Of a stretch of 62,148 nucleotides of DNA, positions 18,164 through 47,951 are shown piece after piece; the stretch's first letter is position 1, and each line of letters begins with the position of its first letter. The translations under genes were made by a program, and so were the position numbers. The notes below the pieces were generated by a model. The model had not been told where the DNA came from, made no database searches, and was given only the letters and a program-made list of their open reading frames with translations. The stretch covers positions 1-62,148 of the forward strand of contig JAFDHQ010000024.1 of assembly GCA_019308685.1 (NCBI GenBank), in the 5' to 3' direction. The DNA is from Deltaproteobacteria bacterium (GTDB taxonomy: Bacteria > Desulfobacterota > Desulfobacteria > Desulfobacterales > UBA11574).

Positions 18164-18532
18164 TATAGAGAATATATGTTGGATTAGTTATACAAATAAT
18201 CATATTTTTCGATCTGTCAAGGTTGTAAATGTTTGATAATAAGTTGGAGTTTCATTGGAACTTATAAGATACGCTATTATTATTTTTAATTTTAAATTCT
18301 TCTGCAAGTGTGCCACCAGCGCACTTTAAAAAGATGTATGCGTAACTGCAAAAGAGATGAGGGTGGGGCCCCTCCTCGTAGCCAGCTGACGGGAGCAGCC
18401 TTCAAAACACCTCAAGCTGCATAGGCATGGGGGCTTTGTGGTGAGCGTTGAGAAAAAGGAATGGTAAAATTCTGTATCATGTGTGTTGGTGTTAAAGCTG
18501 ATAATCTGACCATAGATCTTAGAGAAAACATA

Positions 18533-41139: not shown

Positions 41140-41214
41140 TGGCTGGGGCGGGAGGATTCGAACCTCCGAATGCAGGAACCAAAATCCTGTGTCTTACCAC
41201 TTGACGACGCCCCA
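41140..41214 (-). tRNA. tRNA-Gln (anticodon UUG), CCA encoded
   Basis: The minus strand reads TGGGGCGTCGTCAAGTGGTAAGACACAGGATTTTGGTTCCTGCATTCGGAGGTTCGAATCCTCCCGCCCCAGCCA. It has a 7-bp acceptor stem, the anticodon arm CAGGA-TTTTGGT-TCCTG and the T-loop GGTTCGAATCC. Confidence 0.9.
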
Positions 41215-42119: not shown

Positions 42120-42530
42120 CTATCCCTTTTCTTTTACATATAACATCCTCAGATCATATAGAATATTTTTTAGCATGGTCTCTTCATCCTTTGTCAAATT
42201 CCCTTGGGTTTTCTCTTCCAGCATGCCTAAAATATCTATGGTCTGTTTTGCAAGGGGCAGGTTCCTCGTCTTTTTCCCGGTGGCAGGATCGTCTATGAGA
42301 CCGAGTTGCACCAGTACAGATGAGTTCAACGAAAAAATAAAGGTGGCGAAATTGATTTTCGGCAATTGATAATCTGTTCTATCCTCTTCAGGAGCAGCCG
42401 CCTCTTCGGATTTACTTTCCTCAACCTCTTTTTCTGAAGGTTTGGTTGCTTCTTCTTTGGTCTCTTGACCCTGATCTCCTTCCGCGAACATTCTTTTGTC
42501 TTTGATAATAAAATCTTTTTTTTCAGGCAT
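42120..42530 (-). CDS. DUF1844-like small acidic protein
   Basis: 136 aa. An acidic N-terminal half precedes INFATFIFSLNSSVLVQLGLIDDP...LPLAKQTIDILGMLEEKT, which I recognise as the DUF1844 pattern. GGAG RBS. Confidence 0.55.
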   Translation of the reverse strand: MPEKKDFIIKDKRMFAEGDQGQETKEEATKPSEKEVEESKSEEAAAPEEDRTDYQLPKINFATFIFSLNSSVLVQLGLIDDPATGKKTRNLPLAKQTIDILGMLEEKTQGNLTKDEETMLKNILYDLRMLYVKEKG

Positions 42531-42761: not shown

Positions 42762-45700
42762 TCATGAAACACGGGAGACAATGAATTCCCCGATTTTTTC
42801 CGCAGATATTCCAAAAAGTTCTTTCATTCCCACGAGCTCAATATACTGTTCATCCCACACCACACTGTTTTCCTGGACAATGTTTTTGATGCGCTCATAT
42901 TTTCCGCCCAGGGCCTTTATCTTTACATATAGCGGAACATTTTCTTTAAACGATATATTCAACAACAGGATGTGTTCAATCAAATTCGGTGTGGCCGCAG
43001 AGGTGGATATAATGGGAATAACGATAATGCTTCGGTCGTCTTTCCGTCCTATGCCAATGTATACATTCCCTTCCCGTACAATGATTCTTTTGGTCCCCTT
43101 CAACAGGCGGTCGGTTTCCACACGGGAGGGAATCGGTTTTAAGGTACCTTCTTTTTTTATTATTTCGATGGTGGTTTGATCTGTGGGTTCACCGAGAACG
43201 TTCAAGCCTTGGATTCTGTAAAAAATGGCTCCTTTTATCCTTGAAACGATTCCCTGTAGATTTTTAAGAACCAAAATATTCCGGTTAATCAGTTGGGAAG
43301 TATGGATATTGTATTGGGTCAGTGCTTGAAACAGAATCCCTTCCAGCTTTTCACTGATACGGCTTGTCCCCACAGTGACAGTTTTGGCCTGGTGCCGGAT
43401 AGCATCCACAGGTCGGGACATGCAGTTAATTGATTCTCCCAAACACTCAAAGAGTGTGTTCAACATGTTTAGCGCCGTACCCTTTTTCCCGAAATCTATT
43501 TCAAAATCAGATACCGGTAGTCTCCCGGACAGATATTTTAAAAGCAAGGTTAGATCCGATGCTGCTTCAAGACCCATGGCAGACGGAAAACTGTTATCGC
43601 TTTTTTTCCTTCTGAATTCTTTATAGAAAAAAGCGATTTTTTCCCTGAAAGATTTTTCAAGGATCAATTCGTAAACATCCAAGCCCTTATTCGCATAGTC
43701 GTCTACAATTCTCTGGATATCTTTATTGAACCCGTATAGGAAGCGTGACCCTTCATTAATTGCCATGGCAGCATAATACCCCCAGATATGTCCCACCAGG
43801 GTGTTCAAGATGGGTGCAAAATGCTCACTGACAATCGGGACGTGAAAAACATCCGCTGCATAGGGCTCAAAACGGTTTTCACCCTCGTTGGCGATGACAA
43901 CGACCGTAGCCTTATGTGCCTGGAATATCGCCGTATCCTTTATAATATCTCCGATTACCGTTCCCCTGGCTCCGGCGGCGCAAACAAGGATCAGCGGTTC
44001 CGATGACAGGTCGATGTGTTTTTTATCCTCAACATAATCAGATGAAATCGTTTTATAACAAAGCTCACTCAGTTTGATCCTGATTTCATCTGCTGACGTC
44101 TTGTTGGGGCCGCTGCCTACGGCGGCCCAGTATGTCTTGGTTGTGGCAAGCCTTTTTGCAGAGTTTCCGATTTTGTTATGCATTGAAAGAATTTTTCTCA
44201 TATGGCCGGGAATTTCAAGAAGCTCTTTAATTTGTGATTCAACAAAGGAATCACTCCTGCGACCTTGAAGTCGGGCAATTTTAAGAGCCAGAAGAGCACC
44301 TGCAACGATCTGGGAATAGAAGGCTTTTGTTGAAGCGACCGACATCTCGATATCCCTCCCGCTACTGGTGTACATAACACCGTCAACCTTGAAAGTGATA
44401 TCCGAATCCCTGCGGTTAACGATGGCCATGGTGTAGGCGCCTCGTTCTTTCACCATATCGATGGTACGATTTGTATCTGTGGTCGTTCCGGACTGGCTAA
44501 TGGCAATCACAAGGGAGTCTGACATCATTTTTTTATCGTCATCGTCATCGAGTTTAAACCCGCTGAGCTCCGATGCTTTGATTGCACTGATAAAAAACAA
44601 GGGATTGTTCATATAGTAATTCAGAATGTCTGCACATGCATGTGCAGCAACACCGGCAGTGCCCTGTCCAACAAAAAAGATTCGTCGTATTTTTTTATCA
44701 AGCAGGGCCTTCTGCAACGTTTCAGGGAATGTCTTTTCATCCAGGGTGACGACATACCGCCGGATCTTATCTTCTTTGATTTTCCAACGATTCTGAAGGG
44801 TCTTTTCCACAGAATGCGGAGATTCCGAAATTTCTTTCAAAAAGTAATGGGGAAAATCCTGGCGGTCTATGTCTCTTGAAGTAATCTCGGTATGCTTTAT
44901 ATCATTTTTACTCAGCTTGATCGGGGTATTGTCATAATAGACTGCTTTAATGCCGTCCATGCCGCCGGCGGAATCCTGATTCAAGATGAAAATCTGTCCC
45001 CGGGTTATGCCGTCTCTGCCTTGTGCTTCCTTTTCACCGTCCATCTTGATAAAAAAGGGGGTCTCTTCAATCAGTCCGTATACCTCTGAAGTCGGCATAT
45101 AGTAATCTTTTGCAATACCGATAAAAATGGCCTGACCACTTCCTTTCTGAGCCAAAAAGATCTTGCCTGGAGCCAGATCGGTATGCATTGATATGGCATG
45201 TGACCCCTTGAAGTCATTTACTGCCAGGCGGAACGCTTCTTGAACCTCAACACCCTGGTTAATATACTTTTCGATCTGAAGTGGTATGATCTTTGTATCT
45301 GTAGTGATATCCGGAGGTATAACACCGCCGTGCTGTTCATATTCATTTTTAAGTTCCATATAATTGTCGATATCTCCGTTCAGACAAGCGTGTATGATAC
45401 CGCTTTTTGGAGCACTGCTCCCTGAGGTGCTGTTGTCCACAGGATGACAGTTGGGTTCGCTGATAGCGCCCACCGATGCCCAGCGTGTGTGGGCGGAAAT
45501 CGTATGGTATTTGGGATGGAATGAGACCAGTTTATGGAGAATCGTATCGTTTTTTATATGTTTGCGTAGGGACTGAATATTATCCCCGAGACTCCCGACT
45601 TCAGCGGCAACTTTATAGGTAAGGGCAATGGCCACACGTTTTTGACCGTTTTCGTCTCCTGACTCATTTACTTCGATTCCCAGGTTAACCAGAACATCAC

Positions 45701-46508
45701 GGGAAGACCGCTCTTTCAACTGATCATAAAGATTTTTCTTTTTGATTATTTCTTCGAATCTGTCAAATTCAGAACCCTCAAGAACAAACATCATGGATAT
45801 TCCTGCAGAATCGCGACCTCTGACTTCCAGACGGTCGATACTGTTCAGTACGGCATTGATCTGTTTGAAAATATTGACTTCATAACTGATGGGAGTCTCA
45901 TGGTCATCCCCCAAAAAACTTTTTATCTTATTGATATTATTAGCAATTTCAGAGGTAAGGCACCAGGCAATATCTTTGATAAAATCGATGCGCCGTGACA
46001 GAATATTTACTTCATCAGACTCAAGATTTCCCATTTGGAGGTCCAGCAACCGTTGTTCTTTATCAATGAATTCGAAAAAATGGTCGGCCATTTTTTCAAG
46101 TTCGCGCTGACTGTTCCGGTGAATGAAAAGATTATAAAAAAGATCATTGCATTTTAAGTTTCGCACGTTTTGGAAAAGAGCGGCAATCTGCTTTTCTCCA
46201 CCCAGATAATGATCTTCAAGATTCAAGCCATTTTGCCTGCAGTTTTCATAGCAAAGATCCTGGATTTTTATGAACATATCTTTCAAAGAGTTAATGTCGA
46301 TGCGGTCGTCTTTTTTATTCTTTTTCTTAAAAGAAACAATTCCTGCGAGTCCACAGCACAACATGTTATCTTGGCATGGTAAAAATATTATGGAACCATC
46401 CGGCAGGTCGGCCATATGTCTTCCAAAATATACATCTGCAAAAAGACAACTCAAAATCAGTCCAGGTATCTGACGGATAAGACTATAGATTTTAATTAAA
46501 CAATTCAT
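42762..46508 (-). CDS. giant GlmS-like protein: class-II (Ntn) glutamine amidotransferase domain plus two SIS domains, with large insertions and a C-terminal extension
   Basis: GlmS-type motifs are present: CGLAGIV, LEVRGRDSAG, HTRWASVG...N.HP, NGDIDNY, two SIS cores (VGQGTAG...ISQSGTTTDT and AVGSGPN) and AKTVTVG. GGGAG RBS 5 nt upstream of the ATG at 46508. Confidence 0.8.
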   Translation of the reverse strand: MNCLIKIYSLIRQIPGLILSCLFADVYFGRHMADLPDGSIIFLPCQDNMLCCGLAGIVSFKKKNKKDDRIDINSLKDMFIKIQDLCYENCRQNGLNLEDHYLGGEKQIAALFQNVRNLKCNDLFYNLFIHRNSQRELEKMADHFFEFIDKEQRLLDLQMGNLESDEVNILSRRIDFIKDIAWCLTSEIANNINKIKSFLGDDHETPISYEVNIFKQINAVLNSIDRLEVRGRDSAGISMMFVLEGSEFDRFEEIIKKKNLYDQLKERSSRDVLVNLGIEVNESGDENGQKRVAIALTYKVAAEVGSLGDNIQSLRKHIKNDTILHKLVSFHPKYHTISAHTRWASVGAISEPNCHPVDNSTSGSSAPKSGIIHACLNGDIDNYMELKNEYEQHGGVIPPDITTDTKIIPLQIEKYINQGVEVQEAFRLAVNDFKGSHAISMHTDLAPGKIFLAQKGSGQAIFIGIAKDYYMPTSEVYGLIEETPFFIKMDGEKEAQGRDGITRGQIFILNQDSAGGMDGIKAVYYDNTPIKLSKNDIKHTEITSRDIDRQDFPHYFLKEISESPHSVEKTLQNRWKIKEDKIRRYVVTLDEKTFPETLQKALLDKKIRRIFFVGQGTAGVAAHACADILNYYMNNPLFFISAIKASELSGFKLDDDDDKKMMSDSLVIAISQSGTTTDTNRTIDMVKERGAYTMAIVNRRDSDITFKVDGVMYTSSGRDIEMSVASTKAFYSQIVAGALLALKIARLQGRRSDSFVESQIKELLEIPGHMRKILSMHNKIGNSAKRLATTKTYWAAVGSGPNKTSADEIRIKLSELCYKTISSDYVEDKKHIDLSSEPLILVCAAGARGTVIGDIIKDTAIFQAHKATVVVIANEGENRFEPYAADVFHVPIVSEHFAPILNTLVGHIWGYYAAMAINEGSRFLYGFNKDIQRIVDDYANKGLDVYELILEKSFREKIAFFYKEFRRKKSDNSFPSAMGLEAASDLTLLLKYLSGRLPVSDFEIDFGKKGTALNMLNTLFECLGESINCMSRPVDAIRHQAKTVTVGTSRISEKLEGILFQALTQYNIHTSQLINRNILVLKNLQGIVSRIKGAIFYRIQGLNVLGEPTDQTTIEIIKKEGTLKPIPSRVETDRLLKGTKRIIVREGNVYIGIGRKDDRSIIVIPIISTSAATPNLIEHILLLNISFKENVPLYVKIKALGGKYERIKNIVQENSVVWDEQYIELVGMKELFGISAEKIGEFIVSRVS

Positions 46509-46524
46509 TGATACTCCCAATATC

Positions 46525-46552
46525 GATGAATTCGCGAAACATCGAATTCATC
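46525..46552 (-). other. 10-bp-stem hairpin between the PBP gene stop and the GlmS-like gene RBS
   Basis: gatgaattcg-cgaaacat-cgaattcatc. Its loop core tcgcgaaac is shared with family-4 hairpin copy 2. Confidence 0.5.
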
Positions 46553-46571: not shown

Positions 46572-47951
46572 TCAGGTAGCGGCTTTTTTAAAATAACTGT
46601 GGAAATATTTTCTCATTGCAATCCGTGCGTAATAGCTCGCTCTCAGGCCAATGTATTTTTCATGGGCGACAATCACTGATAAAGCGATCTTTTGCGGTCC
46701 GTTTTTTTCTTCGGCAAATCCCACAAACCAGTCATAACGGGCATCGTGAGATTTGTTGTCAATGGAGCCTGTTTTGCCGCCGATATTGAGTTTGGAAAGA
46801 ATCTTATCTCTTCTATATCCTCTGAAAGCCTTTCTGCAGGTGCCGGAGCGAATGGTGGCCGCCATGAGTTGATTAAGGACTTTAGATGCTCTGGGGGTAA
46901 TTGCCTGGTTAATCGTGACCAAACGATTCCGGTAAATGATTTCTCCTTTTTCGTTAATGATCTGATCAACTACCGTAGGTTCCATGATACTCCCCTGATT
47001 GATGATTGCTGAAGCCATCATTGCACCGTGAAGGGGAGAGATTTTTGTTTTATTATTGAACCCGCAGGCGACCTCAGCCCATTGGTAAGGTTCATCGGAC
47101 AAATAGACAGAACTCGGAGCAATCTGAATCTCAAAATCGATATTTTTGTTGAAGTCAAAAGCTTCAGCGTACTTTTCGAGCGTATTTTTACCCAGGTAAA
47201 GGGCACCGATTTTCCCAAACACCGGATTAACCGATTGTGCAAATGACTCTCGAAATGTTATCCGGTTGGTATACTTGTTTGTCCGGTCTTTAAGCTGGGA
47301 CTTATACAGGGTATGTTTTTTCCCGTTGTATGAAAGTTTAGAACTCGGATTGAAGCCACATTTCTCAACAACTGCGGATGCGGTAACGATTTTAAAAATA
47401 CTCGCTGCGGGGAATCTGCTGTCCACGCACGGATTGTTAGACGGATCTGTCTTATCAAAACCGACCATACATAAAACTTTGCCGGTTGCTGGATCCATAC
47501 CCACGATTCCGATGTATCTGGATGTGTCTAATTTCAGCTTTTTTAGAAGATAGCCCTGCAGTTTTATGTCAAGGCTGGTGTCAATTTGAAATTTACGTCC
47601 ATCCGAAAAAAAGTCGAAACTTTTATTCTTAAGATTTACAAATGATATATGTTTAAGCAGGTCACGAACATTGCTTTTGTCTATTAACTTACCATAATTA
47701 AGGCGGGAGTCGATTTTTTTATCATGGGATGAGGAAAAATAATGACCAATTAAATGAGAAAATGATTTTTCGCCAAGACCGACGAATATTCCGTAACCCG
47801 AAATAAGAAAAGCAATAACCAGGGCGAATAATTTAATGGTTTTATTGATTAATCTTTTTTTGGTGGCAGTCCATTTCAAATTATTCTGATACTCTCTCCA
47901 TCCCGGTCTTTTGAGGGCTACTTGTTCGGTTTCAAGTTTGTGGGGAATCAT
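46572..47951 (-). CDS. monofunctional penicillin-binding transpeptidase (membrane-anchored)
   Basis: N-terminal TM helix and the three PBP motifs SIFK (SxxK), SVN (SxN) and KTGS. No glycosyltransferase motifs are seen. Confidence 0.8.
   Translation of the reverse strand: MIPHKLETEQVALKRPGWREYQNNLKWTATKKRLINKTIKLFALVIAFLISGYGIFVGLGEKSFSHLIGHYFSSSHDKKIDSRLNYGKLIDKSNVRDLLKHISFVNLKNKSFDFFSDGRKFQIDTSLDIKLQGYLLKKLKLDTSRYIGIVGMDPATGKVLCMVGFDKTDPSNNPCVDSRFPAASIFKIVTASAVVEKCGFNPSSKLSYNGKKHTLYKSQLKDRTNKYTNRITFRESFAQSVNPVFGKIGALYLGKNTLEKYAEAFDFNKNIDFEIQIAPSSVYLSDEPYQWAEVACGFNNKTKISPLHGAMMASAIINQGSIMEPTVVDQIINEKGEIIYRNRLVTINQAITPRASKVLNQLMAATIRSGTCRKAFRGYRRDKILSKLNIGGKTGSIDNKSHDARYDWFVGFAEEKNGPQKIALSVIVAHEKYIGLRASYYARIAMRKYFHSYFKKAAT

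Follow-up and report, generated by a model that had tools for sequence, protein, structure and literature searches.

A probable long-form GlmS with an internal catalytic tail and, in one clade, a pro-sequence ahead of the nucleophile cysteine

GlmS makes glucosamine-6-phosphate (GlcN6P) for the cell wall, the committed and usually essential step to UDP-N-acetylglucosamine (UDP-GlcNAc), and is an antibiotic target; its control by a ribozyme, by small RNAs and by UDP-GlcNAc feedback provides textbook cases. E. coli GlmS (PDB 2J6H, 1JXA) consists of an N-terminal nucleophile (Ntn) glutaminase, two SIS domains and a catalytic tail, in that order, and GFAT1 is a GlmS orthologue with a regulatory insert in the glutaminase domain and allosteric control by UDP-GlcNAc. 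Ntn class-II amidotransferases need the free alpha-amino group of their Cys, which is exposed after removal of an 11-residue propeptide in B. subtilis PurF and of a presequence in the alpha subunit of Azospirillum glutamate synthase. Here, we analyse a gene at 42762-46508 on the minus strand of contig JAFDHQ010000024.1 (assembly GCA_019308685.1) from a Deltaproteobacteria bacterium of the Desulfobacterales, the whole stretch of DNA analysed, hereafter the window, being 62,148 nucleotides (nt) long. Its 1248-residue product, which combines a GlmS core (a class-II glutaminase and two SIS domains) with ~620 extra residues, is probably an uncharacterised long form of GlmS.

The long form shares the domain order of E. 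coli GlmS, which is its best structural match (E 2e-21). Unlike E. coli GlmS, however, it is twice as long at ~20% identity, its Lys603 tail is internal and it starts with a 51-residue leader. Specifically, it adds ~150 residues after the Cys strand, ~65 residues within the glutaminase, ~115 residues before the tail and a C-terminal domain of ~200 residues. GFAT1 (PDB 6R4E and related entries) matches the long-form model as well as E. coli GlmS does, yet its insert is short and lies elsewhere, its C-terminal tail is free, and it has neither a PAS-like domain nor a pro-sequence. PurF and glutamate synthase have the same Ntn glutaminase fold but other acceptor domains, and their propeptides are shorter than, and unrelated to, that of the long form, whose processing we infer. 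Finally, the GlcN6P deaminase NagB-II/GlmD, FrlB and AgaS possess the double-SIS sugar-phosphate fold and give weak profile matches (PDB 3hba, 8eol), but they lack the glutaminase domain and the extra modules, and the match is far weaker than that to GlmS.

The gene, identified from its translation and from Pfam, NCBIfam and Foldseek matches, is a single unbroken open reading frame (ORF) of 1248 codons plus stop from the ATG at 46508; the frame is already open from a TTG at 46520. A GGGAG ribosome-binding site lies 5 nt upstream of the ATG, as the original prediction, made from the DNA letters and their ORFs, had noticed. The domain annotation with hidden Markov models that it had called for returns both halves of the enzyme, since Pfam detects GATase_6 at residues 336-459 (28.6 bits, cut-off 27) and SIS at residues 606-742 (51 bits). 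The GlmS models of NCBIfam cover residues 312-916 with 240-261 bits, and HMMER aligns residues 54-589 of the E. coli GlmS chain (PDB 2j6h) to residues 324-915. All GlmS motifs quoted in the original prediction are present where it had placed them, namely CGLAGIV at residues 52-58, RGRDSAG at residues 230-236, the HTRWAS.G...N.HP-type motif HTRWASVGAISEPNCHP at residues 340-356 (the number of positions given between G and N was off by two, a trivial slip), NGDIDNY at residues 377-383 and AKTVTVG at residues 1041-1047.

Nevertheless, the long form departs from the formal definition of GlmS in two respects, the curated score cut-off and the position of the tail at a free C-terminus. The query scores 239.7 bits against a cut-off of 418 on TIGR01135 and 261.3 bits against 381 on NF001484, and so falls short of the equivalog level; distant family members likewise remain below the cut-offs of the GlmS models, at 221-246 bits. 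The Lys603 tail, which in GlmS forms the extreme C-terminus, is internal here, with up to 206 residues following QAKTVTVG. In the clade of the query there is a third departure, because the Cys is not N-terminal in the primary product.

The catalytic residues carry the assignment. They were mapped by the HMMER alignment to 2j6h and checked in a 49-sequence alignment of distant members (~30-50% identity). In the glutaminase, E. coli C1, R26, D29, R73 and W74 correspond to C52, R230, D233, R342 and W343, and T76, H86, N98, G99 and D123 correspond to S345, H355, N377, G378 and D404. In the synthase/isomerase half, T302, S347, Q348, S349, T352 and V399 correspond to T617, S671, Q672, S673, T676 and V724, and S401, K403, K485, E488, H504 and K603 to S726, K728, K812, E815, H831 and K1042. 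The long form has thus kept Cys1, R26, R73, W74, H86, N98, G99 and D123 of the glutaminase as well as T302, S347, Q348, S349, T352, S401, K485, E488, H504 and K603 of the isomerase half, whereas T76, S303 and E351 are replaced. All 24 catalytic, substrate-binding or channel positions of GlmS that we checked are conserved in the family, 21 of them invariant (49/49).

Specifically, Cys52 is present in all 47 distant sequences that cover its column, the two others being truncated at the N-terminus, and R230, R342, W343, S345, H355, N377, G378 and D404 are invariant in 49/49. The glutamine-binding and oxyanion set of E. coli (R73, D123, N98, G99, R26) is provided by R342, D404, N377, G378 and R230. 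Equivalents of the fructose-6-phosphate (Fru6P) phosphate loop and of S401, K485, E488 and H504 are present, with the exceptions of S303 (A618) and E351 (T675); together with the replacement of T76 by S345, these are the family-specific changes relative to canonical GlmS. In the 49-member alignment, S and T both occur at position 671, and 46 sequences have T at position 675. K1042, invariant in 49/49, we take to be the Schiff-base Lys603 of E. coli GlmS, from a by-eye match to the E. coli tail, …PRNLAKSVTVE-COOH (…QPRNLAKSVTVE). It lies in the best conserved part of the protein, the 19-residue tail RPVDAIRHQAKTVTVGTSR, which is 97% identical in the close family and 86% identical among distant members. 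This mapping onto 2j6h bears out the proposed membership of the GlmS superfamily.

Counted against the E. coli GlmS numbering, the additions to the core fall into defined segments, all encoded on the minus strand. The pro-sequence (residues 1-51; 46356..46508) precedes the Cys52 codon (46353..46355). Insert 1 (residues 61-215, …DRLEVRGRDSAG; 45864..46328) is modelled by AlphaFold2 (AF2) as a helical bundle between the Cys strand and the GlmS alpha1 helix. The class-II glutaminase core (residues 216-545; 44874..45863), delimited by the 2j6h alignment and the GATase_6 match, and the two SIS domains of the isomerase/synthase half (residues 546-916; 43761..44873), delimited by Pfam and the same alignment, are followed by Insert 2 (residues 917-1031; 43416..43760), which AF2 models as helices that link SIS2 to the catalytic tail. 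The internalised tail with K1042 (residues 1032-1050; 43359..43415), recognised by its conservation, leads into the C-terminal extension (residues 1051-1248; 42765..43358), modelled by AF2 as a PAS-like domain and a terminal helical bundle.

Most of these additions had been anticipated in the original prediction, which gave about 50 residues before the Cys (we count 51), about 150 mostly helical residues between the Cys strand and RGRDSAG (~153 before R230, helical in the AF2 model) and about 200 residues beyond the usual GlmS end (198-206 after the AKTVTV tail). The insert after SIS2 that it had described is equally real, but its size is ~115 helical residues (917-1031), not ~130, and the list was incomplete, missing ~65 residues between RGRDSAG and HTRWAS and ~34 residues between the glutaminase core and SIS1. 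The segment lengths are all conserved across 48 distant full-length members. Insert 1 spans 121-159 residues across the family at only ~13% identity to the query, and Insert 2 spans 97-134 residues. Searched against Pfam, residues 1-216 and 917-1248 give no match.

The AF2 model of residues 49-1248, built without the leader, has a mean predicted local distance difference test (pLDDT) score of 74.7 and a predicted TM-score (pTM) of 0.71. Insert 1 forms long helices with pLDDT mostly ~80-90, and the low-confidence stretches include the Cys strand, the Q-loop equivalent and the tail; the Q-loop and the C-tail are mobile in GlmS crystal structures. The best Foldseek matches of the whole model are E. 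coli GlmS and human GFAT1 (E ~2e-21), whose isomerase domains superpose on it at TM-scores of 0.75-0.81 (normalised to the target). Modelled apart (residues 1001-1248), the C-terminal module reaches pLDDT 83.5 and shows the order beta-beta-alpha-alpha-beta-beta-beta followed by five helices. Its top Foldseek matches in the PDB are LOV, PAS, Cache and longin domains (E 0.014-0.3, TM 0.2-0.39, none significant), and a 24-member family profile of the extension finds no sequence match in the PDB or Pfam; the models thus point weakly to a PAS-like domain. In every complete matched protein, this module forms the C-terminal part of a chain of 1130-1260 residues. G1093, Y1097, G1121, S1128, G1138, K1140, G1154, D1157 and E1213 are invariant in it and R1129 nearly so, and the polar residues S1128-R1129, G1138-x-K1140 and D1157 suggest a candidate binding site.

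In the clade of the query, the predicted nucleophile is residue 52 of the precursor, whereas it is residue 2 in 35 of the 48 distant full-length members, which start Met-Cys-Gly-[IL]. The Cys of these members aligns exactly with Cys52, the predicted N-terminal nucleophile (E. coli Cys1) after loss of the leader, and this confirms that the Cys occupies the nucleophile position. The leader itself is recognised by a conserved motif, by its codon-position substitutions and by its distribution over one clade. At the protein level, relatives conserve DVYFG[KR]-x3-4-VP-x2-S[IV]VFFP-x3-N-x-L-x ahead of Cys52. In codons 1-51, substitutions at codon positions 3:1:2 among 17 relatives number 460:367:276, a coding-type pattern. 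The motif is kept even in relatives without a Met at position 32, and Met49, three residues before the Cys, is conserved in no relative. Because neither Met is conserved while the upstream motif is, we take the long start as real, as had been proposed, and reject starts at Met32 or Met49. A signal peptide or lipoprotein leader was also rejected, by eye and with no predictor, there being no lipobox and no hydrophobic core near the Cys, and the substrates being cytoplasmic. In a neighbour-joining tree of the conserved core, eleven pro-sequence representatives and the query form one clade, inside which one Met-Cys member is nested. The pro-sequence measures ~24-71 residues in this clade, and most of the wider family is without it; by this distribution, the pro-sequence is a derived addition of one nested clade.

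One explanation is that the leader is never removed, so that the glutaminase is blocked and the protein acts as an ammonia-dependent GlcN6P synthase/deaminase, like NagB-II/GlmD, or as a sugar-phosphate sensor. In keeping with this, the Cys is internal in the primary product and established knowledge of class-II amidotransferases holds that Ntn chemistry needs a free alpha-amino group; the SIS half, moreover, weakly matches the NagB-II models of NCBIfam, and ample ammonium may be available to anoxic sediment dwellers. However, the Cys and the glutamine-binding and oxyanion residues stay invariant within the pro-sequence clade, a pattern not expected of an inactive domain. Furthermore, Met-Cys members surround the clade in the tree, and propeptide removal has precedents in this enzyme class in B. 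subtilis PurF and Azospirillum glutamate synthase. We therefore hold a permanently blocked enzyme to be improbable. The original prediction had left autoprocessing and an inactive glutaminase side by side; the latter is unlikely because the catalytic residues are invariant, and cleavage we infer. Because the Cys and glutamine-site residues are invariant and Ntn chemistry needs the free alpha-amino group, removal of the leader appears the most economical reading.

The long form is by no means peculiar to its source organism, a point that the original prediction had marked for examination. A search of clusters representing 5.8 billion proteins returns more than 100 clusters at 64-92% identity to the query, nearly all of 1217-1264 residues and from Desulfobacterales metagenome-assembled genomes. 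Database names of the relatives, all automatic, are "SIS domain-containing protein" or, at JGI, GlmS. In a 26-member alignment, mean column identity is 70%, with invariant residues along the whole length. The C-terminal 332 residues, searched against 1.84 billion cluster representatives, match 395 clusters, whose named members come from Planctomycetota, Candidatus Xenobia, Acidimicrobiales and others. In a scan of one genome per species, at least 584 stretches encode a relative, of 1130-1260 residues. Across 39 Desulfobacterales loci, mean identity to the query products is 61% for the long form, 68% for MetG and 46% for HolB, and 50% for the neighbouring penicillin-binding protein (PBP) in the 26 of these loci that carry it. 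The long form is thus nearly as conserved as its neighbour MetG, which indicates strong purifying selection on the gene.

This distribution also disposes of the idea, raised as a caveat in the original prediction, that the extra segments stem from an assembly error or a frameshift fusion of separate genes, or, relatedly, that the start is mis-called. Some database entries do start at Met32-type positions (1217-1229 residues), and a Met lies three residues before the Cys. Yet the same architecture of 1130-1260 residues recurs in hundreds of independent assemblies with conserved segment lengths, the VYFG[KR] motif is kept in relatives without Met32, Met49 is unconserved and the substitutions are of the coding type. 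The comparative data rule out fusion, assembly artefact or a wrong start, to which we assign a negligible probability. Full-text literature searches found nothing on a long GlmS or a GlmS propeptide and no paper characterising the family, and no GlmS entries turned up in the searched supplements of two Desulfobacteraceae genome papers. Taken together, the alignments indicate that the family is probably a widespread, apparently undescribed long form of GlmS, homologous to known GlmS.

Gene neighbourhoods bear on which reaction the long form catalyses. In three independent Acidimicrobiales-type contigs (L081, L083, L086), the order is rplM-rpsI-glmM-[long form]-acpS-(nnr)-alr-tsaE-tsaB-rimI-tsaD, with glmM directly upstream of the long form; groES-groEL comes next in both loci that reach that far. 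The glmM neighbour, scored in two of the Acidimicrobiales-type loci, reaches 504 and 517 bits on TIGR01455 (cut-off 447.55). In M. tuberculosis, glmS and glmM are presumably flanked by rplM/rpsI and alr…groEL. There, glmS (Rv3436c) and glmM (Rv3441c) lie five genes apart (PMC9366312). By synteny, the Acidimicrobiales-type long form appears close to the position of M. tuberculosis glmS. Of the loci in the pro-sequence clade, L022 carries glmM (574 bits) immediately upstream and pgi in convergent orientation downstream; in L069, glmM (613 bits) and a nagB-like gene both lie upstream. Among Desulfobacterales loci, ten carry kdsB directly upstream, and 17 carry a DegT-type aminotransferase (396 residues) followed by an iron-containing alcohol dehydrogenase (Fe-ADH, ~357 residues) that borders the long-form gene, a pair that presumably resembles KdnA/KdnB of the Kdo8N pathway of Shewanella. 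Examples of these neighbourhoods are L031 7635-8825, L071 8888-9958 and L011 9129-9893. Because the neighbours in relatives belong to hexosamine and envelope-sugar metabolism, they support the conversion of Fru6P to GlcN6P, and the glmM, pgi, nagB-like and kdsB genes strengthen the envelope or amino-sugar role at which the original prediction had hinted.

Part of the same evidence could be read differently, namely that the long form is a paralogous amidotransferase that applies GlmS chemistry to another ketose phosphate, or serves an envelope sugar pathway, beside an ordinary glmS. Scores below the curated GlmS cut-offs, the family-specific changes S303 to A, E351 to T and T76 to S, and the kdsB or DegT-type aminotransferase/Fe-ADH genes upstream in 10-17 Desulfobacterales loci, which hint at synthesis of modified 3-deoxy-D-manno-octulosonic acid (Kdo) or lipopolysaccharide sugars, would all fit such a paralogue. 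On the other hand, the Fru6P sugar and phosphate contacts of E. coli GlmS are all kept except S303 and E351, and glmM is a direct neighbour in two phyla, in one case near the glmS position of actinobacterial synteny. The pro-sequence clade has as neighbours pgi, which makes Fru6P, and a nagB-like gene, and no second GlmS-like gene lies within 10 kb of the long form in 80 related loci. A phmmer search of the core against all ORFs finds no canonical glmS in the 62-kb window; neither negative extends to the rest of the genome. We consider a paralogue of this kind unlikely, though a more serious contender than a blocked enzyme, and favour GlmS itself.

If the long form is a GlmS, it would catalyse Gln + Fru6P -> Glu + GlcN6P as follows. 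The precursor would be made with its 51-residue leader, which would be cut, most likely by Ntn-type self-cleavage at X51-Cys52, to free Cys52 as the N-terminal nucleophile. The glutaminase would then hydrolyse glutamine, with R342, D404, N377, G378 and W343 in their GlmS roles, and ammonia would pass to the SIS half, where K1042 of the internal AKTVTV tail would form a Schiff base with Fru6P and E815, K812 and H831 would perform ring opening and isomerisation. Insert 1, Insert 2 and the PAS-like domain would surround the Cys strand and the C-tail and most likely exert allosteric or assembly control. We propose such control, the weakest step of the scheme, because the inserts bracket two catalytic elements that are mobile and because the tail has become a tethered internal loop; the modules would act on closure of the active site or on assembly.

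A bolder version goes further, and we regard the whole as a tentative possibility, doubtful in its entirety. In it, several lineages (Desulfobacterales, Acidimicrobiia, many Planctomycetota and others) would have the long form as their only GlmS, with built-in regulation: the PAS-like sensor and the two helical modules would clamp the tail and the Cys strand, and a metabolite such as GlcN6P or UDP-GlcNAc would gate the active site. The Desulfobacterales clade would, moreover, make it as a zymogen, whose self-cleavage at Cys52 would switch on the glutaminase.

Several points weigh against reading the protein as GlmS, or against parts of the scheme. The curated NCBIfam rules do not name it GlmS (240 versus 418 bits), and the family could handle its substrates differently, given the replacement of T76 by S, S303 by A and E351 by T. 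The 62-kb window contains neither glmM nor glmU, and the neighbours there are general housekeeping genes. We know of no GlmS with a propeptide, and in the model lacking the leader the Cys strand has a pLDDT of 23-36. The PAS-like label of the C-terminal domain derives from sub-threshold Foldseek matches.

In the window, the gene order is holB, a PSP1-domain gene, metG, PBP, the long form, DUF1844, ispE, tRNA-Gln, prs, rplY, pth and a membrane pyrophosphatase. Of 80 Desulfobacterales loci, ~50 share the order holB-PSP1-metG-(PBP)-[long form], and 37 include the PBP. The PBP directly upstream (46572..47951, minus strand, 459 residues, 63 nt from the long-form gene) is transpeptidase-only (Pfam Transpeptidase, 125 bits) and lies far below the cut-offs of the NCBIfam PBP models, in agreement with the monofunctional PBP described earlier. 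Directly downstream, a DUF1844 protein of 136 residues (42120-42530, minus strand) is adjacent only in the closest relatives (L001-L007, L054, L077). The tRNA-Gln (anticodon TTG; 41140-41214, minus strand) separates ispE from prs.

The 63-nt gap between the PBP stop codon (46572-46574) and the ATG at 46508 contains a perfect 10-bp hairpin, GATGAATTCG-N8-CGAATTCATC, at 46525-46552 (minus strand). In the minimum free energy fold (-21.8 kcal/mol, z = -3.0), the GGGAG ribosome-binding site of the long form is engaged in an outer stem, where it pairs with the end of the PBP gene. The hairpin sequence is near-identical in the closest relative (L002) and partly retained in L050, and the hairpin may mediate translational coupling or control. 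An Rfam scan of the window finds no glmS ribozyme and returns only the tRNA and a group II intron fragment (domains D1-D4, RF01999, 62 bits, at 18359-18482, plus strand); promoter and terminator scans remain at background level.

Some further proteins and labels in the related loci deserve mention. A protein of 432-444 residues is encoded upstream of glmM and the long form in L022 (196-1494) and L069 (3825-5159); it has no Pfam match but weakly matches the acetyltransferase half of GlmU (E ~1e-11), and could be a divergent glucosamine-1-phosphate acetyltransferase. The gene of a ~395-residue protein with a faint HEAT-repeat match ends 6 nt before the long form in L084 (8810-9994, unassigned) and L085 (6657-7850, Planctomycetota), and its product may be a partner protein. 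The contig of L081/L082 (protein P0324) is labelled 'Thermoanaerobacterales bacterium', yet it has the actinobacterial rplM-rpsI-glmM…alr-tsaE-groES order, like the Acidimicrobiales loci, and the label may be a binning error.

The long form probably supplies the GlmM-GlmU pathway, which leads to UDP-GlcNAc for peptidoglycan and lipid A. It breaks two accepted structural rules of GlmS, in that the tail is not the free C-terminus and, in one clade, the Cys is not N-terminal, and it would thereby extend the enzymology of Ntn amidotransferases. Members of the family escape the NCBI curated model and carry the name "SIS domain-containing protein", so metabolic reconstructions may mistakenly score glmS as absent. 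If the zymogen and metabolite-gating proposals hold, the long form would be, to our knowledge, the first GlmS zymogen and a protein-level counterpart to the glmS ribozyme or to GlmY/GlmZ. The family could thus reveal a new control of hexosamine flux in abundant sediment sulfate reducers, marine Acidimicrobiia and Planctomycetota.

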